Below, in pieces: positions 8,218-23,975 of a DNA stretch of 24,000 nucleotides. The position numbers and the translations under genes are program-made. How positions within the stretch are numbered: the first letter of the stretch is position 1; each line of letters starts with the position of its first letter. This DNA is from Caedibacter sp. 38-128 (lineage in GTDB: Bacteria; Pseudomonadota; Alphaproteobacteria; Caedimonadales; Caedimonadaceae), in NCBI GenBank assembly GCA_001898705.1, contig MKUU01000011.1, positions 104,080 through 128,079 of the forward strand. The letters run 5' to 3'. The notes below the pieces were generated by a model. That model saw only the letters and a program-made list of their open reading frames with translations, was not told the DNA's origin and did no database searches.

Positions 8218-8586
8218 TTAAGCTTTAAACCACATTAAATAAAAAATTAATAAGATAAACCCTAGAAGATACAAAGGCCATACACGCCTCATCAATTCAC
8301 CTGGAGAGATGCTCCCCAAAGGAAATGTCATACAAGAATTATTTAATGTTGTTTCTGTAAGTTCTAGCTCGCCTGATTTTGATTTACTTATTTCTAACGA
8401 CTTTATCTCTTCCCCCTTCTCACTAGAGAGGGAGATTGGCAGTTGGATTTCTTTGCTAAATGGCTTCAAATCAATATCGACTGCTATAAATTCTTCAACG
8501 CCATGTTTTTGAAAATAGGATGATAATTTATCAACAACTTCATGAAGATCAGATGCAGAAATTTTTCCTTTAATTTTTATAATCAT
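8218..8586 (-). CDS. Hypothetical tail-anchored membrane protein
   Basis: 122-aa ORF with no N-terminal signal peptide. It has a single hydrophobic helix at the extreme C-terminus (VWPLYLLGFILLIFYLMWF). No recognisable domain. Confidence 0.5.
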   Translation of the reverse strand: MIIKIKGKISASDLHEVVDKLSSYFQKHGVEEFIAVDIDLKPFSKEIQLPISLSSEKGEEIKSLEISKSKSGELELTETTLNNSCMTFPLGSISPGELMRRVWPLYLLGFILLIFYLMWFKA

Positions 8587-8689
8587 CTTTTACTATAAAA
8601 TCTCCATACTAAAGTTATTAAAGACATTATGGCCATTTTGAAATATCTCTTTTAACCTACTTTATGGCTTTAGGGCCTGCTAGTTTAGA

Positions 8690-9529
8690 CTACATCAAAT
8701 TTTTTGGATCAAAGGTGATGGTCATGTCTTTCCATTGCTCATACTTCTCTGGCGGCAATAATTTTGCAGGTACAGGATTACATTGAGGACCTTTTAATGA
8801 CCTTAAAGCACTTTCTGCAATTACACGATAAGAGGGATCATTCATATTTCCTGCATTAAGGAGTTTTACATCCCTTACAGAGCCATCTCTATTCAAATAT
8901 ACTTTAATAGGAATAATCGCTATTTCGTGAGCCCCCTTTGTGCCAGCGGGAACCAACCAACAATTATTAAAGAAGCTTTTGAGAGCATCTGTCTCACTAA
9001 TCGTTAAAGTATCCCCAATTTCTCCCACTTGTTGGTCCGGAGCATTATCGTCGCTTTTAGCGTCCTTAACAGCATCAGGCACCGTTTTCTCAATTTCTTC
9101 AAGGTTCTTAAGCACGGAATCAAAAGCATTAACCTTTTTCTTCTTTTCCGGTGCTTTTTTCTCAGGCGCCTTTTTAGGCGGTGTTGGGGGCTTAGGTTTT
9201 GCCTTGGGTGCCGGCGCAATGGGTTCAGCTTTTGGCTCAGGTTTGGGTTTTTCTGGCTCAGGCGTTGACTTATCTTCAGGTTTTGGTTGAGGTTTAGGTG
9301 CCTCTTTCTTAGGTATCTCTTTCTTAGGCTCTTCTTTCTTCGTTTCCTCTTTTTTGGGTTGGAGTGTTGGCTTAGGTGCCTGGGTCTTTGCCCCAATCTC
9401 AACCACATCAATAGGGATGGGTAAAAACAAATCCGTGTTGTTCTTGCGCCAATTTGGAAGCCCAAAGATAAATAATATGACTAAAAAAAGATGCAGCAAT
9501 AAAGAGTAGAGTAAAGGTTTCTGCATCAT
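8690..9529 (-). CDS. tolA: Tol-Pal system protein TolA
   Basis: N-terminal TM anchor (LLYSLLLHLFLVILFIFGL), then a long Lys/Pro/Glu-rich linker (KKEETKKEEPKKEIPKKEAPKPQPKPE...). The C-terminal TolA/TonB-like domain reads CWLVPAGTKGAHEIAIIPIKVYLNRDGSVRDVKLL...ALRSLKGPQCNP. It lies directly downstream of tolR. Confidence 0.87.
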   Translation of the reverse strand: MMQKPLLYSLLLHLFLVILFIFGLPNWRKNNTDLFLPIPIDVVEIGAKTQAPKPTLQPKKEETKKEEPKKEIPKKEAPKPQPKPEDKSTPEPEKPKPEPKAEPIAPAPKAKPKPPTPPKKAPEKKAPEKKKKVNAFDSVLKNLEEIEKTVPDAVKDAKSDDNAPDQQVGEIGDTLTISETDALKSFFNNCWLVPAGTKGAHEIAIIPIKVYLNRDGSVRDVKLLNAGNMNDPSYRVIAESALRSLKGPQCNPVPAKLLPPEKYEQWKDMTITFDPKNLM

Positions 9530-11246: not shown

Positions 11247-11475
11247 GTTCATTTACACAAAAATCGCAATTGACAATCAAATAATCTTTACACTACAAGA
11301 AATAAAATTGAATTCAAACATGATGAAATGTACCAAAGGGTACTTTCAATTTCTCCCCTTTCATCAAGAATCAGAGGCATTGCATGCTGTTTGCCACATA
11401 TTTACTAAGTTGCTCACTAAAACTAGATGGTTACTTCAATAAGATGCTTAAACAAGAAATGATTTGAAATTTAAA

Positions 11476-12474
11476 ATGTCTTTTCCTTCCTCCGCTCATA
11501 GAACACTTGTGATTCAGCCTTTACCCGGCATTGGAGATATGATTTGGCATTTGCCTTTGCTGCGCGCAATTGCTGACCAAGCCCCTCAAAAAAAAATAAC
11601 GCTCTTATGTAAAGCTAGTTCACAATCTGCATTTCTTTTCAAGGAATGTGAATTTATTGAAGAGATCATTACGCTTCCTCCGGCTTCAACATCCACCTTT
11701 TGGGCTCTTGTAAAGCAACTGAAAAAAACTTCCTTTAAACAAGCTTGGGTTTTACATCATAGTAAACGTTATTATATGTTAACATTCTTTGCCAGAATCC
11801 AAGAACGGTACGGTTATGGGTTTCGGTGGCAGCAGATGTGGCTAACAGACCGTAAGCTCCTAAATAACGATCAACGCCAATTATCGACGCTTGAACGTAT
11901 TTCTGCTTATACGGCTGCGCAGGACTTTGAAATCAGACCTCAAGATAAGTTTTTTAAAGTTTCAAAAAAGCGACAAAATCACCTCATGCAAAAATTTTCT
12001 CACTTTCCTCATCCTTGGATTATATTTGGAATTGGCGCAACTGAGGCGTTTAAAAGCTGGCCTTTAGAATATTTTGCCCAACTTGCAAAAGAATTATCCA
12101 AGGATGGAAAAAAAACCATTTTTTTATGTTGCTCTCTCGCAGAACAAGAAAGAGCTCACGCTATTATGAATCTTATAGATACAACTGAAGCTTCTGTCCT
12201 TCCAATCACAAATTTCCCCTTAGATGAAGTCATGGCTCTTTTATCGTTATCTTCCCTTTTCATTGGCAATGATAGCGGGTTAATGAATATTTCAGCAAGT
12301 TTAGGCATTCCAACAGTTGGGTTATTTGGACCAACCCCACAACTTTCATATGTTCCAAATCTCTATGGGATAACGCCTGCCATGGGTAATGTATCTGCTG
12401 ATAACCTTATGGCGACAATCACTCCTTCAATGGTACTCTCTTTTTTGACGGAAAAACAATTACTTTCAGTTTAA
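11476..12474 (+). CDS. Glycosyltransferase family 9 (ADP-heptose:LPS heptosyltransferase-like), paralog 1
   Basis: N-terminal GT9 motif LVIQPLPGIGDMIWHLPLLRAIA and C-terminal motif LFIGNDSGLMNISASLGIPTVGLFGPT. The start is either ATG 11476 or the tracked TTG 11464, and neither has a strong SD. Confidence 0.85.
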   Translation: MSFPSSAHRTLVIQPLPGIGDMIWHLPLLRAIADQAPQKKITLLCKASSQSAFLFKECEFIEEIITLPPASTSTFWALVKQLKKTSFKQAWVLHHSKRYYMLTFFARIQERYGYGFRWQQMWLTDRKLLNNDQRQLSTLERISAYTAAQDFEIRPQDKFFKVSKKRQNHLMQKFSHFPHPWIIFGIGATEAFKSWPLEYFAQLAKELSKDGKKTIFLCCSLAEQERAHAIMNLIDTTEASVLPITNFPLDEVMALLSLSSLFIGNDSGLMNISASLGIPTVGLFGPTPQLSYVPNLYGITPAMGNVSADNLMATITPSMVLSFLTEKQLLSV

Positions 12475-12636
12475 ATTTGAGAAAACATCACATATTTTGC
12501 TGAAAGAATAAATGTTTTCACTAAAGTCTTAGCAATAGGGAACGCCTTTCATAACTCTATTCTTAAATAAAATTGAAGTTGCGCCTTAAATAATCTTCGA
12601 ATTATAAATAATTAACATTGAATCGAAAGTCGTAAA

Positions 12637-13608
12637 ATGCATCAAGGCGATACCCTTATTATACTACCCTCTGCTGGGATTGGAGACCTCTTGTGGCGTC
12701 TTCCGCATATTCGTGCGATCGCGCGCCAGGAAGGAGCTGTCACTCTCTTAACACGACATCGGACGAAAGCGACAGAATGGTTAATTCACGATCCCAGCGT
12801 TAAAAATATCATCTATGCAGAACAAAAAGAACTTGGGCGCGCTTTTTGGGAAGTTCTGAAAGGGAAGTTTTCCAAATCTTGGATGCTCCATAAAAGTTTT
12901 AGCTATGCATTAATTCCTTTTCTAGCACGCATTCCTGAGCGTGTTGGCCTTGGATTTGATAAGCAAGCCTCATTGCTAACAACAAAAAATATTCTCCCTC
13001 CACTTATGAAAAAGCAGCATATGATTCACCAATTAAATGCTTTAATTGAGTTGCATGGGTTATCATGTGCGCCAGAAGATCGGCACCCTCCTCTCGCGAA
13101 AATTGCACAGCAAACGATTCAAAAACAATTTTCTTCTTTTCCACGTCCCTGGATTTGCTTAGGAATTGGGGGCAGTGAGTTTTATAAAAAGTGGCCTATC
13201 GAGCATTTTATTGAGTTGGGTACGCAAATAAGTACTCACCATCAAGGAACCATCTTCTTATGCGGCGGACCTGCTGAAGCCTCTGAAGCACTTCAAATTC
13301 AAGAAGGGATTCAGCAAAAAGGAGGCAATGCCAAGACTGTTACACACCTTACGATTGAGCAAGCTTTTGCTTTCATCTCAAAAATAAATCTTTATATTGG
13401 AAATGATACCAGCCTCTTTAATATTTCTGCCAGCTTTGAAATTCCAACGTTAGGGTTATTTGGAGCAACGCCTCCTCTTACTTATAGCAAAAGCATCTAT
13501 GCTCTTGAGAGCCCTAAAAAAGATTTACAAGGGCTTGAAGCAATGAAAGAAATTAAACCCCCCTTTGTTTATAAAGTTCTTCAACAGCAAAAATGGATTG
13601 AGACCTAA
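12637..13608 (+). CDS. Glycosyltransferase family 9 (heptosyltransferase-like), paralog 2
   Basis: Same architecture as the upstream gene (LIILPSAGIGDLLWRLPHIRAIA ... LYIGNDTSLFNISASFEIPTLGLFGAT). The two are clearly paralogous in tandem. Confidence 0.85.
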   Translation: MHQGDTLIILPSAGIGDLLWRLPHIRAIARQEGAVTLLTRHRTKATEWLIHDPSVKNIIYAEQKELGRAFWEVLKGKFSKSWMLHKSFSYALIPFLARIPERVGLGFDKQASLLTTKNILPPLMKKQHMIHQLNALIELHGLSCAPEDRHPPLAKIAQQTIQKQFSSFPRPWICLGIGGSEFYKKWPIEHFIELGTQISTHHQGTIFLCGGPAEASEALQIQEGIQQKGGNAKTVTHLTIEQAFAFISKINLYIGNDTSLFNISASFEIPTLGLFGATPPLTYSKSIYALESPKKDLQGLEAMKEIKPPFVYKVLQQQKWIET

Positions 13609-14448: not shown

Positions 14449-15757
14449 ATGGAAAAACATTCTTTTAACTCTCAGGCTACCCTCTCTCAAAGCCCGCCTT
14501 TTTTAACGAAAGAAGCACTTACCCACAACTCTGAAAATTTAGAAAACTATGATTGGCATCTCCACGCTCGACCGAGTCAGAAGATCCCCGAAGGTAACTG
14601 GCGTATTTGGCTCATTCTTGCAGGTCGAGGCTTTGGAAAAACGCGCACGGGGGCAGAAACTATCCGCCATTGGATTAAGACCAATCAAGCACGACGAATT
14701 GCCCTCATTGGTGATACTCAAGAAGATGTTCGCGATATCATGATCGAAGGTGAAAGTGGGCTATTAGCCATTCACCCACCCGACGACCGGCCGCTTTATG
14801 AACCTTCTAAACGCCGTTTAACCTGGAAGAATGGAACAATTGCAACGGCTTATAGCGCCGAAAATTACGAGCAGCTCCGTGGCCCTCAATTTGATCATGC
14901 TTGGATTGATGAGTTCGCCAAGTTTCATGAGATTGAAAAAGTATGGCAACAGATTCATTTCGCTCTTCGGCTTGGACCTCATCCTAGAATGGTCATCACC
15001 ACAACGCCACGCCCCCTTCCCTTACTTCAACAACTTGTTGCACAAGCAGGTCAAGAAATCATTCTTACGCATGGCACGACGTTTGAGAATCAAGCTAACC
15101 TTTCACCCACCTTCATCAATACGATGCAACAGAGTTTTTCAGGTACCCGTTTAGGCGCTCAAGAATTACTTGGTGAGATCATTGATACTCATGAAGGCGC
15201 TTCTATGGACACCTGCTCTCTTGGATCAATATCGAGCAAATGAGATGCCTGAGTTTAAACGTATTGTGATTGGCATCGATCCAGCGGTGACGCATCATGC
15301 CGAAAGCGATGAAACAGGAATTATTGTCGCTGGCTTAGGCGCGGATCAGCAAGCGTATGTTCTTGAGGACCTTAGTGGTCGTTATGCGGCAACAACATGG
15401 GGCAAAATCGCCTGCGAAGCTTATCATCGCTGGCAAGCCGATCGTATTGTGGCCGAAGTCAATAAAGGCGGTGATTTGGTTGAAAGCCTTCTGAGATCAA
15501 TTGATCCCACCATTAGCTATCAAGGTGTCCATGCCAGCCGCAGGAAATATACGCGGGCTGAACCTATTGCTGCTTTTTATGAACAAGGGAAAGTCCACCA
15601 TGCCCGCCAAAGCCTTAAGCCTCTTGAAGATCAGATGTGTAAATTCTTACCAGGCATGAGTTCCTCCCCCGACCGCGTTGATGCGCTTGTGTGGGCGCTA
15701 ACGTCACTGTTGTTAGAAAAAGAATCTTTTCGCTCTTATGGCGCATGGCAGCTATAA
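14449..15757 (+). pseudogene. Phage/GTA-type terminase large subunit, interrupted by a 1-nt frameshift near 15199-15206
   Basis: Two overlapping ORFs (14449..15243 in frame 1 and 15170..15757 in frame 2) together give a full-length TerL. The N-terminal ATPase has LILAGRGFGKTRTGAE (Walker A) and HAWIDEFAKF (Walker B-like). The C-terminal nuclease half has RIVIGIDPAVTHHAESDETGIIVAGL, ADRIVAEVNKGGDLV, RAEPIAAFYEQGKVHH, LEDQMC and SPDRVDALVWALT. Deleting one T at 15201-15202 restores ...THEGALWTPALLDQYR.... Confidence 0.85.
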
Positions 15758-16165: not shown

Positions 16166-16654
16166 ATGACTTTACGATTCACCCTTTTCCTTACAGCCTT
16201 CCTTCTTCTCAGCATTCACCCTTCAAAAGCTTCCAATCTAAATTTTACACAAGAAGAAGATTTAGTAGTGCGTCCAGTTAAAAAACATAAAGCTAACGAG
16301 TCATCTACGTTAAATGCCGCAACATGGGAAGAACTTCCCTATCGTATTTTGAAAAGTTTCTTAGAAGAAACGTTAGAAAAGGACGGAACCACTATTATTC
16401 GTTTAAGTCTCATAAATAAAAATATTCGAAATTTTATCGAACAAACATGTGAAACGCTTGATCTTCGAGGTAATGATCTTTCAACGGGTCTCCTTAAAGC
16501 CGTTATGAATCAACCAACTCTTAACCTTGAAGCTTTTATTAAATTGACGACATTAAATGTGACTGGTTGCAATCTTACGATTTTTCCCCAGCTTTCCATC
16601 GCCCATGACCCTGAAAACTTTAACATCATTGGCTATTACAGCCCAAGAACTTGA
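16166..16654 (+). CDS. Secreted F-box-like / leucine-rich-repeat protein (short paralog)
   Basis: Signal peptide MTLRFTLFLTAFLLLSIHPSKA. F-box-like segment WEELPYRILKSFLEE...IIRLSLINKNIRNFI. LRR segment ETLDLRGNDLSTGLLKAV...LTTLNVTGCNLTIFPQL is homologous to the downstream gene. Confidence 0.65.
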   Translation: MTLRFTLFLTAFLLLSIHPSKASNLNFTQEEDLVVRPVKKHKANESSTLNAATWEELPYRILKSFLEETLEKDGTTIIRLSLINKNIRNFIEQTCETLDLRGNDLSTGLLKAVMNQPTLNLEAFIKLTTLNVTGCNLTIFPQLSIAHDPENFNIIGYYSPRT

Positions 16655-16723
16655 GTAACTTTAGCAAACGGATAAAAATGGTTTTTTATATCTCTTTTAG
16701 CAAAACACCATATCGAGACTACC

Positions 16724-17446
16724 ATGTTTCAAAACTTTAGATTTTTAATCACAATTTTAATTCTTGCCTATTCTCCTTTAACAAATGCTTCAGATGAGGC
16801 AATCTTAAAAAAACAACCACTAAGACCAATAGCGCTTAAACCTCAAGGTAATCTAATAGGATTTCAAGTCTTTGATTTAGAATCATCGAAATTTAACCTT
16901 CTCCCTTCTCAGAGAAGTATGTTTACATCTGCTTGTAGTCCTAGAAAAACATATGAATTTGTGGACCTTAGCAATCCTTATATGCAACCTCCCCGTCAAA
17001 GAAAAAAGAAGAAGAAAAGTATTAATTTTAGTAATCGAGATTTTACCCAAACAGAAACCCAATTAAATTTCTTCCTTGATATAAATAAAGTTACAGGTAT
17101 TATAAAATTACATTTAAGAAGTTGCCAATTACATATCTTACCAGAGTCACTTTTTAAGTTAACTAAAACGCTTGAAATACTTGATCTCAGTAATAATGAT
17201 TTCTCAATGGGACTCATGGAAGTGAACCCACTTCAAAATCTTTGCTTATTTACAGAGCTAAAGAAACTATATTTAAATAACTGTCGTATTAATGTCCTTC
17301 CCGGTTCTCTACGTGAGCTTAAAAAATTATCCCGCGTAGAACTTATGTATAATCAATTAGAAATGCCTAAACAACGCATTCTCGCATATTTTCAACCGAA
17401 TACGATTGTCATCGTAGGAGAACAGGGTCGTCACCTTAAAAACTAA
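16724..17446 (+). CDS. Secreted leucine-rich-repeat protein with a polybasic (NLS-like) tract
   Basis: Signal peptide MFQNFRFLITILILAYSPLTNA followed by SDEA. Polybasic RQRKKKKK. LRRs: LHLRSCQLHILPESLFKLTKTLEILDLSNNDFS...LKKLYLNNCRINVLPGSLRELKKLSRVELMYNQL. Confidence 0.7.
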   Translation: MFQNFRFLITILILAYSPLTNASDEAILKKQPLRPIALKPQGNLIGFQVFDLESSKFNLLPSQRSMFTSACSPRKTYEFVDLSNPYMQPPRQRKKKKKSINFSNRDFTQTETQLNFFLDINKVTGIIKLHLRSCQLHILPESLFKLTKTLEILDLSNNDFSMGLMEVNPLQNLCLFTELKKLYLNNCRINVLPGSLRELKKLSRVELMYNQLEMPKQRILAYFQPNTIVIVGEQGRHLKN

Positions 17447-20178: not shown

Positions 20179-20848
20179 TCTTGCTCTTGAGCTTAGAAAT
20201 ATACAGCGCACTTTCATTCAAGGGGATCAAAAATTAAACATCCTGAACGATGTTAACCTCCAGCTTAACGCCGGTGAAATTGTTGCTCTTGTGGGGCCAT
20301 CTGGTTCAGGAAAATCAACATTGCTTCAATTAGCGGGGCTCCTCGAATTTCCTTCAAATGGTGAGGTATATATCGCCGGCAATGCTTGTGGAAAAATGAA
20401 TGATCGGGAAAGGACTTCTTTACGGCTCAGCATGATTGGTTATATTTATCAATTCCACCATCTCTTGCCAGAATTCAGTGCGCTTGAAAACATTATGTTG
20501 CCTCAACTAATTGCGGGATGTCCACCGAACGAAGCCGAAGCTCATGCTAATCGCCTGCTTCAAAGTTTTAACCTTAAAAATCGTGGAACGCATCGCCCTT
20601 CGCGTCTTTCAGGGGGTGAGCAACAACGCGTAGCTATTTTACGTGCCATTGCCAATCAACCGAAAATTCTGTTGGCAGACGAGCCGACAGGAAACCTGGA
20701 TGAAGCTACAGCTGAAATTGTGTTTAATGAGTTGGTAGCGCTTGTACGTAAACATCAAATAGCAGCGTTGATCGCAACCCATAATCTTGAACTTGCCAAG
20801 CGCATGGATCGCACGATCCAGCTACATAGTGGCACTCTTACTCATTAA
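20171..20848 (+). CDS. lolD: Lipoprotein-releasing system ATP-binding protein LolD
   Basis: Walker A GPSGSGKST, ABC signature LSGGEQQRVAILRA, Walker B ILLADEPTGNLD. I chose the start at ATG 20171 (MNNLALELRNIQRTF), which overlaps the lolC/E stop by 8 nt. The tracked start at 20090 lies inside lolC/E. Confidence 0.93.
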   Translation: MNNLALELRNIQRTFIQGDQKLNILNDVNLQLNAGEIVALVGPSGSGKSTLLQLAGLLEFPSNGEVYIAGNACGKMNDRERTSLRLSMIGYIYQFHHLLPEFSALENIMLPQLIAGCPPNEAEAHANRLLQSFNLKNRGTHRPSRLSGGEQQRVAILRAIANQPKILLADEPTGNLDEATAEIVFNELVALVRKHQIAALIATHNLELAKRMDRTIQLHSGTLTH

Positions 20849-21826
20849 TGAAGGCGAAAATACTTCTTTTGGATCGCAAGTCGTCCCATCTATAATAAAT
20901 TTTTTGAGGTTTATTAATGATAAGATAAAGTTTTTATAAGCCATTGCGACATCACCATCAAGACTCAGCATCTCAAGTTTTGTAAGTCGAGTAAAGTGTT
21001 CAATTCTTTCAAACGTTTCAATCTCATCCATATTTCCATCTATATTAAGTTTGCGAAGTTGGGTAAGTTTGAGAATATCCTTAACTTTATTCACTGGAAG
21101 TCCACTTCGCCAAACATTTACTTGAGTAAGGTTTGTTAATTGAGAAATATTTCCAAATGTAGTTTCCTCTCCTGCATGCCCCATTAACACTAATCGATTA
21201 AGTTTAAAAAGTTTTGTAAGGTAAACTTCACTATTAAATTCATGAAAGACTGCCCCCGATAAGTCCAAACTTGTTAGGTTTGTTAATAACGTAAGAGGTT
21301 GAAAACCCGAGTCTTTAAACGTTCGATTTCGCACTGTTAAATTTTCAAGATTAATAAGAGAAGTAAGACCTACAAGACTTAACTCGTCAGCTTCTCCAGC
21401 TCTTGGGTTTAATAAAACTAAAGTCTTTACACCAACCCAAGTATTAGAGTTTTCTTCAACAAAATAAGCTTTTTTTAAGATATCAGCATGAATTCTAACT
21501 GATGCATAAGGGTAGAAGCGCCTCTTGTAGTATTGCAAATCTTCAGAATCTAACCAGTAAAAAAAAGCATCAAGTTTAGTTGCCCTGTCGCAAAATGGTT
21601 TACAAACCACTCGTAGTTTTTTAAGAACACTTCTGTCTTTTTGTCCAATTTCAAAGATATAAACTAACATCTCGTTAGGAAGCGTAGGAACGGTCTTATA
21701 ATAAGGTTTTTCTTGAACCTCTACCTCTCGCGCGGGCCCTTCATCAGATCCATAAACTGTAAAATTATACAAGAAAGACAAGGAAATTAAGCAAAGTATA
21801 TTTTTTATAATTTTTTGGTTAAGCAT
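20822..21826 (-). CDS. Secreted F-box + leucine-rich-repeat protein (eukaryotic FBXL-like architecture)
   Basis: Signal peptide MLNQKIIKNILCLISLSFLYNFTVYG followed by SDEG. Canonical F-box LPNEMLVYIFEIGQKDRSVLKKLRVVCKPFCDRA. Multiple LRRs follow (LTSLINLENLTV, LTLLTNLTSLDLSG, ISQLTNLTQVNV, ILKLTQLRKLNIDG, FTRLTKLEMLSLDG). The 3' end overlaps lolD by 27 nt in convergent orientation. Confidence 0.8.
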   Translation of the reverse strand: MLNQKIIKNILCLISLSFLYNFTVYGSDEGPAREVEVQEKPYYKTVPTLPNEMLVYIFEIGQKDRSVLKKLRVVCKPFCDRATKLDAFFYWLDSEDLQYYKRRFYPYASVRIHADILKKAYFVEENSNTWVGVKTLVLLNPRAGEADELSLVGLTSLINLENLTVRNRTFKDSGFQPLTLLTNLTSLDLSGAVFHEFNSEVYLTKLFKLNRLVLMGHAGEETTFGNISQLTNLTQVNVWRSGLPVNKVKDILKLTQLRKLNIDGNMDEIETFERIEHFTRLTKLEMLSLDGDVAMAYKNFILSLINLKKFIIDGTTCDPKEVFSPSLMSKSATM

Positions 21827-21940
21827 TTTATTTTTTTATTATTTTTATTTTGTTATAGTTTAGCCAACCTCAGCTTGATAAATAAGTCATCCCTATAAGT
21901 CAACATTTATTTCAATAATTACAAAAATTATAATCCTCTC

Positions 21941-22393
21941 TTATCGCCGCGCCTGAAAAAAATCTTTCAACAGCTGGCCACACTCTTCTGCTTGAAACCC
22001 ACCCATTACTTTTGGGCGATGATGGCACGTCTTTTGAGAAAATACCTGAGAGCCATGCTCAACCCCTCCGCCCTTAGGATCGTAAGCTCCATAATAAAGG
22101 CACCTGATGCGCGCATGAGCCATCGCTTGGGCACACATGGCACACGGCTCAAGGGTCACATAAAGGTCACACCCTACTAAGCGTGGTGTTTTAAGAAGTG
22201 CAGCGGCTTCACGGATGACGAGAATTTCAGCATGAGCAGTAGGATCATGGTTGCGTTCAACACGATTACCAGAGCGCGCAATAATCTGCCCTTCTAATAC
22301 AATCACGGCGCCGACCGGCACATCGTCTTCTAAAGCGGCCTGTTGCGCTTCTTGAAAAGCTATCTTAAAAAAAGAAATTTCTTGCGCATCCAT
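21941..22393 (-). CDS. tadA: tRNA-specific adenosine deaminase TadA
   Basis: 150 aa with CDA-fold zinc motifs HAEILVIREAA and PCAMCAQAM. It has a typical TadA N-terminus (AFQEAQQAALEDDVPVGAVIV). Confidence 0.9.
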   Translation of the reverse strand: MDAQEISFFKIAFQEAQQAALEDDVPVGAVIVLEGQIIARSGNRVERNHDPTAHAEILVIREAAALLKTPRLVGCDLYVTLEPCAMCAQAMAHARIRCLYYGAYDPKGGGVEHGSQVFSQKTCHHRPKVMGGFQAEECGQLLKDFFQARR

Positions 22394-22514: not shown

Positions 22515-22922
22515 ATGAAAATCAAAAATTTAATGTTTATGACAAGCGTTTTAGCCATTTTCAATCCCTTTATGTCATCTTCCAACGCAGTAACCACTGC
22601 TAGTGGATTACCAGATGACGTAACGCTTGAAATTTTTAGTTTTATGACACCGGCTCAACTTAGTAATAAATTAGAAGTTTCACGGGAATTTCGTCGTCTT
22701 GCCTGTGATAAAAACAGTCCCTTAGGCCAATTGAATAATCACCAAGAATCTAAAGATCTTTATACATTTTGTCGCAAAATGGAATTTGAATTCGGAGAAG
22801 TATTAGCTTTAGCAAATAAAGTTGTTGCTATGAAGGTCAATCCTGCCCCTAAGTTAATTAGCGAAAAAGAATTCAAAGACGCTAAGCATTACGCACAACA
22901 ACTTGTCGATGATAACTTTTAA
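22515..22922 (+). CDS. Small secreted F-box protein
   Basis: Signal peptide MKIKNLMFMTSVLAIFNPFMSSSNA. F-box motif LPDDVTLEIFSFMTPAQLSNKLEVSREFRRLACD. GGAG lies 6-9 nt upstream of the ATG, and the gene is followed by a hairpin terminator. Confidence 0.65.
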   Translation: MKIKNLMFMTSVLAIFNPFMSSSNAVTTASGLPDDVTLEIFSFMTPAQLSNKLEVSREFRRLACDKNSPLGQLNNHQESKDLYTFCRKMEFEFGEVLALANKVVAMKVNPAPKLISEKEFKDAKHYAQQLVDDNF

Positions 22923-22940
22923 AGATATTAAGATAAATAA

Positions 22941-22968
22941 AAGCTGCCCTTTTGTAAAAGGGCAGCTT
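22941..22968. terminator. Bidirectional terminator between convergent genes
   Basis: 12-bp inverted repeat aagctgcccttt / aaagggcagctt with loop tgta. It is flanked by an A-rich sequence on the plus side, which reads as T-rich downstream on the minus strand. Confidence 0.65.
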
Positions 22969-22983
22969 AATTGACTTTACGCA

Positions 22984-23781
22984 TTATGATGGCATTAAGA
23001 TTATCGTATTAAGCTTATTGATTGTTGAATTGCTGAACTTTGGTTCCCATTCTTCAAGCAGATCCCTAAAAAAATCTTCAAAATCACCACCCGATTTTGT
23101 GAGCCATTTCCTTTGTAAATCAATTGTAAAAAGTATAAGATTTGGATCTTTTAAAAACATCTGATCAATAGAGACAGAAAATTTTTGAGCCTCATCTTGA
23201 TTCACATAGCCCAAACTTGAGAACATATTGCGGCCTTTATTTTGTCCTTCTTCAAAAGAAGGAGCCTTTAAATGCATCTCTTCGTGGCTAAGTTCTTCAA
23301 TTAAATTGCAAAGCTTATTAAGACAGATAATTTTTTCTTCCTCCTCGTGTGAAAGATGTTCAATATATTTTAAAATATGCCCATAATAAAATAAAGTATG
23401 TCCCTGACTTCCCGCATAAATAGCTTGAAATTTATGGTGATCTATTATTCCTTTACTTAAAAACTGAGTTTCGAAATTTTTAGCTGCAACTCTGAAATAT
23501 TTGAGAGCTTCAAAGAAGTGATGAGAATTATCATTTTCATCACTTGAATCAATTGTTTTCCCAATATTTTTCCCTTTTTCAGCAGAGGATTTTTTAGTAA
23601 GTTGTTTAATTCCGGCTTTGTACCTTAGAACCTCTTTCTCAAAGGGACAAATCACACTGTTAATTGAATGTTGTTTTTTTAAGTCAGTTCTGGCTTCATT
23701 AATTGGTGAAGCATGTGAAGTGAGAGAAAAATTTAGTATTGTCGCACTGATCAACAAAAAGACTTTATAATTTTTTTTCAT
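22984..23781 (-). CDS. Hypothetical secreted protein (orphan)
   Basis: 265-aa ORF with signal peptide MKKNYKVFLLISATILNFSLTSHA. It is His/Glu-rich with an internal LSHEE repeat (IEHLSHEEEEK / IEELSHEEMH). No recognised domain. Confidence 0.6.
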   Translation of the reverse strand: MKKNYKVFLLISATILNFSLTSHASPINEARTDLKKQHSINSVICPFEKEVLRYKAGIKQLTKKSSAEKGKNIGKTIDSSDENDNSHHFFEALKYFRVAAKNFETQFLSKGIIDHHKFQAIYAGSQGHTLFYYGHILKYIEHLSHEEEEKIICLNKLCNLIEELSHEEMHLKAPSFEEGQNKGRNMFSSLGYVNQDEAQKFSVSIDQMFLKDPNLILFTIDLQRKWLTKSGGDFEDFFRDLLEEWEPKFSNSTINKLNTIILMPS

Positions 23782-23975
23782 TTTTTTCCTTTTAAGACTT
23801 ATAGTTATTATTCAAAGCATCGTAACTTTACTATCCTTTCAACTTTGTTAACAAACGCCATCCTCTCTAGCTGAATTTTATTAAAAATCTTGGCTGATGA
23901 AGTTAAGTTAACAAACTGTTTTCTTTTAAAAAATATGATAAGGTTATGCTATAAATTTTATGCAAGGAAGCATTA

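Follow-up and report, generated by a model that had tools for sequence, protein, structure and literature searches.

Sec-type leader, diverged F-box-like domain and leucine-rich repeats in a predicted protein of an uncultured relative of Candidatus Paracaedimonas acanthamoebae

Bacterial effectors that join an F-box to leucine-rich repeats (LRRs) and alphaproteobacterial effectors that depend on the Sec pathway are each already known. Among the former, the RipG/GALA proteins of Ralstonia associate with Skp1-like proteins of the host, presumably as substrate receptors of SCF (Skp1-cullin-F-box) ubiquitin ligases (PMC4617103, PMC13243912), and the F-box/BTB-LRR families of Neochlamydia and Protochlamydia (NEX/PEX) show birth-and-death evolution, with copy numbers that vary widely between close relatives, and have been proposed to hijack host ubiquitination (PMC4209131). 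Among the latter, BspC and VceA of Brucella have signal peptides that work in Sec export; SecYEG takes them to the periplasm, and their release, probably in outer membrane vesicles, is independent of type IV secretion (PMC12794620). The gene analysed here lies at positions 20822-21826 (minus strand, stop codon at 20822-20824) of a stretch of 24,000 nucleotides from Caedibacter sp. 38-128 (contig MKUU01000011.1, positions 104,080 to 128,079), which will be called the window. It encodes a 334-aa protein in which a Sec-type leader precedes an F-box-like domain and LRRs. We tentatively favour, while giving it slightly less than an even chance, the reading that this is a lineage-specific and rapidly diverging host-interaction protein that would be exported by Sec, leave the periplasm and mimic an SCF subunit. 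We have found no report of an F-box, LRRs and a Sec leader combined in a bacterium and none of such candidates in the Holosporales, and to our knowledge no effector of this order has been characterised. Neither F-box proteins nor signal peptides are brought up in a 2025 review of the Holosporales (PMC11909080).

Each of the described systems resembles the protein in part. RipG/GALA proteins have the same N-terminal F-box followed by LRRs of ~21-25 residues, but they are delivered by type III secretion into plant hosts, have no Sec leader and have an F-box that scores above profile thresholds; moreover, their GAxALA repeat signature is not visible in our sequence, and the two share no sequence relationship other than that of the repeats. 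The chlamydial families also come from amoeba endosymbionts and also combine an F-box with LRRs, but they carry type III signals that are functional in a Shigella assay and are present in tens to more than 100 copies, whereas the gene studied here is single-copy, syntenic, provided with a Sec-type leader and alphaproteobacterial. Eukaryotic FBXL proteins such as Skp2 and TIR1 share the order of F-box, linker and LRR solenoid but are cytosolic and have no leader, and the LRRs of our protein show no significant similarity to theirs. The SSGP-71 effectors of the Hessian fly, which bind host Skp proteins (PMC4617103, PMC7330099), combine a signal peptide, an F-box and LRRs, are secreted into the cells of another organism and are highly diversified; being insect proteins that travel through the endoplasmic reticulum secretory pathway, they represent a convergent resemblance. 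BspC and VceA are, like our protein would be, alphaproteobacterial host-interaction proteins with the routing proposed here, but they have neither F-box nor LRR, are not homologous to it, and their routing was shown by experiment while ours is inferred. A preliminary description of the window had set the protein against AnkB, LegU1 and VirF, F-box effectors without Sec leaders. That comparison stands only in part, since it omits the RipG/GALA and chlamydial families and makes signal peptides on effectors look more unusual than they are: these are predicted in 22% of the Brucella and 31% of the Rickettsia substrates of type IVA secretion (PMC12981334).

Judged by its sequence, the window is from a congener of Candidatus Paracaedimonas acanthamoebae (Holosporales, Caedimonadaceae), and thus from a relative of an amoeba endosymbiont, because its ProRS, LolCE, LolD and TadA proteins are 96%, 91%, 89% and 93% identical, respectively, to those of genome CP008936, and its DNA is ~87% identical to the corresponding locus there (L089). 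The original description of P. acanthamoebae reportedly has the symbiont lying free in the amoeba cytoplasm. The open reading frame (ORF), whose sequence is identical to that quoted before, sits between lolD, which ends at 20848, and tadA (21941-22393), and its 3' end overlaps that of lolD tail to tail by 27 nt (20822-20848), all of which agrees with the preliminary description. Its GC content is 0.34, against 0.43-0.49 in the neighbouring genes (0.45 and 0.49 in the two flanking ones). A blastn comparison of the window with L089 showed that the gene is absent from P. acanthamoebae CP008936, where a 55-bp spacer takes the place of 20870-21938. On the other hand, four further uncultured lineages have orthologs at the corresponding position between tadA and lolD: an intact one in locus L001 (61% protein identity), an intact one in L082 (51%), a fragment (P0009), and P0010 (loci L085-L088), an intact 270-aa form of 29-32% identity that ends earlier than the other orthologs. 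Two short metagenome contigs of the European Nucleotide Archive (ENA) carry a protein identical to that of the window. The simplest reading of this distribution is an ancestral presence of the gene and its subsequent loss in P. acanthamoebae. Two further segments of the window, 11290-13382, with two heptosyltransferase-like genes, and 22927-23902, with a 265-aa Sec-leader ORF, are also absent from CP008936, and gene content therefore changes frequently between these congeners. The four independent assemblies L085, L086, L087 and L088 all end ~110 nt past the P0010 gene, which together with the early stop of P0010 may be a sign of a repeat, or of heterogeneity between strains, at its 3' end.

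The family is very restricted. An exhaustive HMMER search of 1.84 billion representative proteins added two proteins with the N-terminal module, the remaining matches being generic LRR proteins, and beyond the orthologs listed the module was found in no other protein of that set. A search of GTDB genomes with the family alignment rendered no relative, a scan of JGI metagenomes rendered only the contig already known, a tblastn search against plasmids gave no match, and no member of the family came from an NCBI source.

The N-terminus reads MLNQKIIKNILCLISLSFLYNFTVYG before SDE and has the anatomy of a Sec leader cleaved by signal peptidase I (residues 1-26, 21749-21826 on the minus strand): a basic n-region with K5 and K8 (MLNQKIIKN), a hydrophobic core of ~11 residues (ILCLISLSFLY) and a c-region NFTVYG with V-Y-G at -3/-1 and serine at +1. 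The call is a heuristic one, based on the n/h/c anatomy, with an h-region of 7-15 residues, and on the -3/-1 rule. The n-region MLN(Q/K)KIIKN is kept in four orthologs, and P0010, with a leader of different sequence (MNKAKILIRLFFLITILFVNAEA before STE), retains the same anatomy and ends in AEA followed by S; small residues at -3/-1 and an acidic stretch after them are found in all orthologs. Between the window and L001 the ratio dN/dS (omega) rises from 0.18 in the leader to 0.63 over the 20 residues that follow, which belong to an acidic and poorly conserved linker (residues 27-46, 21689-21748, minus strand; predicted mature N-terminus) with only 24% amino-acid identity to L001 and a predicted local distance difference test score (pLDDT) below 40. 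A sum of insertion energies over 19 residues, a crude measure, ranges from +2 to +4.6 kcal/mol in the leaders of the family, which crudely groups them with the signal peptide of TolB (+6.4) and not with the anchors of TolA (-3.1), LolC (-1.0) and TolR (-0.4) in the window. No twin-arginine motif is present in the leader. A lipoprotein was ruled out, there being no conserved lipobox (the window protein has serine at +1 and only P0002 has VYG followed by C), and so was a start at M53, the preliminary description having raised the possibility of a downstream start: the conservation of the leader speaks against it, a methionine is lacking at that position in one ortholog, and the domain would be cut. 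The upstream ATG is the true start, in the ortholog of L082 as well. Altogether the segment, kept in all five known orthologs, looks like a cleavable Sec signal peptide, as had been proposed.

It could also be that the protein is an effector of a type IV or type VI system, and that the hydrophobic segment is not a cleaved Sec peptide but a membrane-targeting helix, serving in an inner-membrane intermediate or as a host-membrane anchor. In its favour, P. acanthamoebae has tra systems as well as vir type IV systems located on plasmids (PMC5751055), the Holosporales share a conserved type VI system (PMC11909080), and many type IV effectors, the F-box effector LegU1 included, have transmembrane segments (PMC12981334). 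However, the shortness of the hydrophobic core, insertion energies that resemble TolB and not the anchors, and the small -3/-1 residues and acidic stretch kept in all orthologs make this alternative improbable. Nor does the invariant C-terminal tail (...LMSKSATM, then the stop codon) count in its favour. The last nine codons correspond to the opposite strand of the end of lolD (window 20822-20869; L089 9322-9369), the antisense frame reads KSKSATM and a stop also in P. acanthamoebae, where the gene is absent, and SKSATM was thus ruled out as a secretion signal; the tail is invariant because of the antisense constraint from lolD and is therefore no evidence for a C-terminal (type IV) signal. 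The ORF runs into lolD as far as the first antisense stop.

The second element is a helical domain that resembles an F-box (residues 47-90, 21557-21688, minus strand, LPNEMLVYIFEIGQKDRSVLKKLRVVCKPF...). The motif quoted in the preliminary description corresponds to residues 49-78 of it, and the DNA given there, 21581-21682, to residues 49-82. Pfam F-box-like (PF12937) matches with 14.8 bits (E 0.024) when the whole protein is searched and with 18.9 bits (E 0.0013) when the segment is searched alone, the gathering scores being 24.3 bits for PF12937 and 20.5 for PF00646; a weaker match to a domain of unknown function is the only other Pfam hit in the N-terminal domain. The consensus register L-P-x-E-[IL]-[IL]-x-x-I-[FL]...V-C-K-x-[WF] can be followed in the window protein and in P0002, with a two-residue insertion, and residues I57, F58, E59, I60, D64, L68, K69, R72, C75 and F78 (core IFEI..D...LK..R..C..F) are invariant in the family. 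Aligned by hhalign with a small F-box profile, which was built from three small F-box orthologs, a metagenomic F-box-LRR protein and Legionella AnkB, the domain falls in the canonical register, again with the two-residue insertion (P 0.008), at a score reached by none of 300 column shuffles. Other hhalign comparisons were less favourable: the profile of the whole family against the 135-aa F-box protein encoded nearby gave a probability of 0.7%, and against the real F-box-LRR protein P0158 the LRRs were aligned and nothing else. AlphaFold2 (AF2) with six sequences predicted helices at residues 51-63 and 65-84 with pLDDT 52-59, and with three sequences the region remained below 45; both models are too uncertain in the N-terminal domain to decide the fold. 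The resemblance to the F-box is above chance and modestly significant, if weak, and we consider it probable that residues 47-90 are homologous to the F-box. That they form a working interface with Skp1 is a separate matter, and one that we would put a little below an even chance. A linker of low model confidence, with a conserved YKRR-PY-S motif (residues 91-131, 21434-21556, minus strand), separates this domain from the repeats.

The LRR domain is solid. The solenoid (residues 132-325, 20852-21433, minus strand) comprises at least seven LxxLxxLxLxG repeats of 23-27 residues, with anchors at residues 160, 184, 209, 233, 257, 284 and 307, more than the at least five repeats announced in the preliminary description. 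Its best Pfam match is LRR_14 (E 1.3e-8; 34.5 bits for a gathering score of 40), followed by LRR_Zer-1 (E 8e-5), with LRR_4 and LRR_8 also found and no match to LRR_6, and the scaffold leucines are 89-93% conserved. Sequence searches of the PDB retrieved internalin A (E 4.4e-8) and, weakly, the GALA chain 9j7j_A (E 0.0058). The AF2 model shows alternating strand and helix in this region with pLDDT 65-85, and Foldseek found 126 fold matches in the PDB at E<=1e-3, of which generic LRR proteins have the best E-values, Skp2 has the top TM-score (0.46/0.48) and TIR1 is also present; the likeness to these two speaks for the F-box-like domain as well. The FBXL-like label of the preliminary description is overstated: nothing marks the repeats as the cysteine-containing (LRR_6/RNI-like) type of FBXL proteins, their best matches being LRR_14, Zer-1 and the internalins, and since the F-box is sub-threshold, FBXL-like describes an analogy of architecture and not membership in the family.

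The gene evolves much faster than its surroundings. Across the lineages the protein is 61%, 51% and 29% identical, against 87-99% for ProRS, LolD and TadA. With respect to the near-identical strain of L001, the background dS of the window is 0.10-0.15 and omega is 0.02-0.10 for ProRS, LolCE and LolD, whereas residues 91-250 (21077-21556, minus strand) have a dS of 0.72-0.89, a dN of 0.39-0.45 and an indel of 14 aa; residues 251-334 are at background divergence again, and the dS of tadA is 0.48. The tract of high dS (0.5-0.9) thus covers two thirds of the gene and the whole of tadA (window 21077-22393), which suggests the import of a divergent allele by recombination, and the gene as a whole looks like a mosaic produced by recombination plus relaxed or diversifying evolution, with omega ~0.5. 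An omega of this magnitude, the low GC content, the absence from P. acanthamoebae, the early end of P0010 and the very few relatives found among 1.8-5.8 billion proteins are also what could be expected of a functionless accessory ORF, the remnant of a horizontally acquired gene that drifts and is being lost from the genus. Against such decay, the frame has remained intact at ~320-344 aa in three lineages down to 51% identity, and as the 270-aa form at 29-32%, the scaffold leucines have been retained amid variation elsewhere, purifying selection acts on the leader and omega is below 1 throughout, so that we consider it very improbable.

In the reading that we favour, the Sec signal peptide would carry the protein across the inner membrane and be removed after G26, a step for which the sequence gives good support. 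The mature protein, consisting of the acidic linker, the diverged F-box-like domain and seven or eight LRRs, would then leave the periplasm in a second step, for which precedent suggests several candidate routes: outer membrane vesicles, leakage or lysis of the envelope, or pick-up by a type IV system. Periplasmic routing with two-step or vesicular secretion, proposed in the preliminary description, is consistent with the behaviour of BspC and VceA; moreover, proteins from the periplasm of Holospora are released into the host (PMC11909080). In the third and weakest step, suggested by the architecture, the F-box-like domain might dock on host Skp1 and the LRRs present a host protein to the SCF ligase.

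Several observations weigh against this sequence of events. The signal-peptide call is heuristic and does not come from SignalP; no outer-membrane step was identified, and no secretion genes are found within the 24-kb window. The F-box, far from the textbook example that had been claimed, remains below the gathering score of PF12937, and PF00646 gives no match. The orthologs P0002, P0003, P0009 and P0010 are without any F-box match in Pfam, a family profile of the region retrieved nothing from the PDB at E<10, L-P has become L-N in P0003 and P0009, the stretch from LP to IF is one residue shorter in P0010 (a register shift of one residue), and AF2 confidence is low over residues 47-130. The gene is dispensable, because the reference species P. 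acanthamoebae does not have it. Furthermore, selection alone would not explain the elevated dS of the diverged segment, which points to recombination as well. Nor do substitutions cluster on the face of the LRRs predicted to be concave: its exposed positions are no more variable than other non-core positions, and the idea of diversifying selection driven by a target, of which this gives no sign, was dropped.

Much of this would fit the main rival explanation, an internalin-like exported LRR protein with a helical N-terminal cap, surface-bound or secreted, that would bind a ligand of the host or of the envelope directly and have no SCF role, the likeness of its cap to the F-box being degenerate or due to chance. 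Listeria internalins and the Leptospira LRR proteins LIC12234 and LIC10831, which are exported by Sec, provide the best sequence and fold matches to the confident part of our protein, and a signal peptide followed by LRRs is their usual layout; the F-box-like domain is sub-threshold, undetected in the orthologs and without a conserved LP motif; and LRR proteins with Sec leaders and no F-box are encoded nearby (16166-16654 and 16724-17446) and in L089 (421 aa). However, internalins have a cap, an inter-repeat (Ig-like) domain and a cell-wall anchor, none of which was detected here: the PDB search revealed no similarity to the cap, and the protein ends ~9 residues after the last repeat, which leaves no inter-repeat domain and no anchor of the LPXTG, GW or autotransporter kind. 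In addition, the N-terminal domain fits the F-box profile above shuffles and in the correct register, and a bona fide protein with leader and F-box is encoded 700 bp away. We consider the internalin-like alternative somewhat unlikely. On balance, a host ubiquitin-ligase mimic that uses the general Sec route is plausible though unproven, by analogy with the systems described above.

The neighbour just mentioned (22515-22922, plus strand) encodes 135 aa, in which a Sec-like leader (…SSSNA before VTT) is combined with an F-box that exceeds the Pfam thresholds: 28.7 bits for F-box-like (gathering score 24.3) and 21.3 bits for F-box (gathering score 20.5). Its ortholog in P. acanthamoebae, IM40_03020, is 70% identical and scores 31.1 bits, and the protein is kept at 70-91% identity in L001, P. 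acanthamoebae and one ENA contig. By sequence, this is a better-supported case of leader plus F-box than the 334-aa protein, and since it passes Pfam, the combination is real in the genus regardless of what the latter turns out to be. The small protein, ~700 bp from the 334-aa one, has no recognisable substrate-binding domain.

Sec-like leaders are common among the accessory genes, that is, unassigned ORFs of low GC: in the window they were predicted in seven of ten such ORFs, whereas among the 17 assigned genes only TolB and Pal have one (Fisher P 0.0036). Leader-rich accessory ORFs, including a 726-aa TPR/Sel1 protein, LRR proteins and several ORFans, are also found in L001, L085 and L089. 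The gene studied here, as judged from these predicted leaders, is one of a larger group in the genus that code for accessory proteins with Sec leaders and with LRR, TPR/Sel1 and F-box domains. Sec-leader ORFs of the window also include 1594-2304 (-), 4572-5108 (-), 16166-16654 (+), 16724-17446 (+) and 22984-23781 (-). Nearly all lineage-specific ORFs of low GC at these Paracaedimonas-like loci have a Sec-type leader, many of them with a predicted A/SD or A/SN junction (the slash marking the cleavage site), while housekeeping genes have no such leaders. It is conceivable, if unlikely, that Paracaedimonas-type Holosporales deliver much of their host-manipulation repertoire, including F-box proteins that have to meet Skp1 in the cytosol as well as LRR and TPR/Sel1 proteins, through Sec and periplasm-to-host release instead of dedicated injection, that the uniform A/SD mature N-termini would be a sorting cue for the second step, and that the present gene would be the first Sec-routed bacterial SCF mimic.

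If the 334-aa protein and its F-box neighbour do reach host Skp1 after Sec export, ubiquitin-ligase mimicry would need no injection machine, and Paracaedimonas would join Brucella as a case in which periplasmic export followed by vesicles or release delivers host-acting proteins. If, on the contrary, the F-box is not functional, the protein would be an ordinary, fast-evolving exported LRR protein. The two proteins, together with the Sec-leader LRR and TPR proteins, form a list of candidates for a culturable amoeba symbiosis.

Other loci in the window and its relatives show a similar variability. At 16166-17446 (+), upstream of proS, the window has two Sec-leader LRR ORFs (162 and 240 aa) where L089 has a single one of 421 aa (4482-5747); the 240-aa ORF is only 55% identical to its counterpart in L001, and this is therefore another fast-evolving exported LRR locus. 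Between fumC and tadA, L085 has three tandem paralogs of 228, 248 and 245 aa (6735-9378, minus strand); they have Sec-like leaders but match no Pfam domain, and their place is taken in the window by the small F-box gene and the 265-aa ORF. The regions on either side of tadA behave as a variable islet that houses accessory proteins predicted to be exported. A 550-aa protein of L085 (2339-3991, minus strand) has a Sec-like leader and then PPAKRRKLN, which resembles a classical nuclear localisation signal. F-box-like strings seen by eye in this protein (LPED...ILPFL) and in the 421-aa protein of L089 have no Pfam support and were not counted.

The AT-rich intergenic region upstream of the 334-aa gene (21827-21940, minus strand) lacks a Shine-Dalgarno sequence and has a single promoter-like site, at 21867-21838; promoter and terminator scans performed no better than on shuffled sequence, the count of promoter-like sites not exceeding that of shuffles, and no tRNA or Rfam RNA was found in the window. 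Its assigned genes include thrS-infC, ybgC-tolQRA...tolB-pal, heptosyltransferases, apaG, a split terminase of phage or gene transfer agent (GTA) type, proS and lolCE-lolD. The large subunit of the terminase is split into two overlapping ORFs (14449-15243 and 15170-15757, plus strand), while it is intact in L001 (435 aa) and P. acanthamoebae (416 aa), and the split gene is probably a pseudogenised remnant of a GTA or prophage; portal and prohead protease genes are found elsewhere in related loci.

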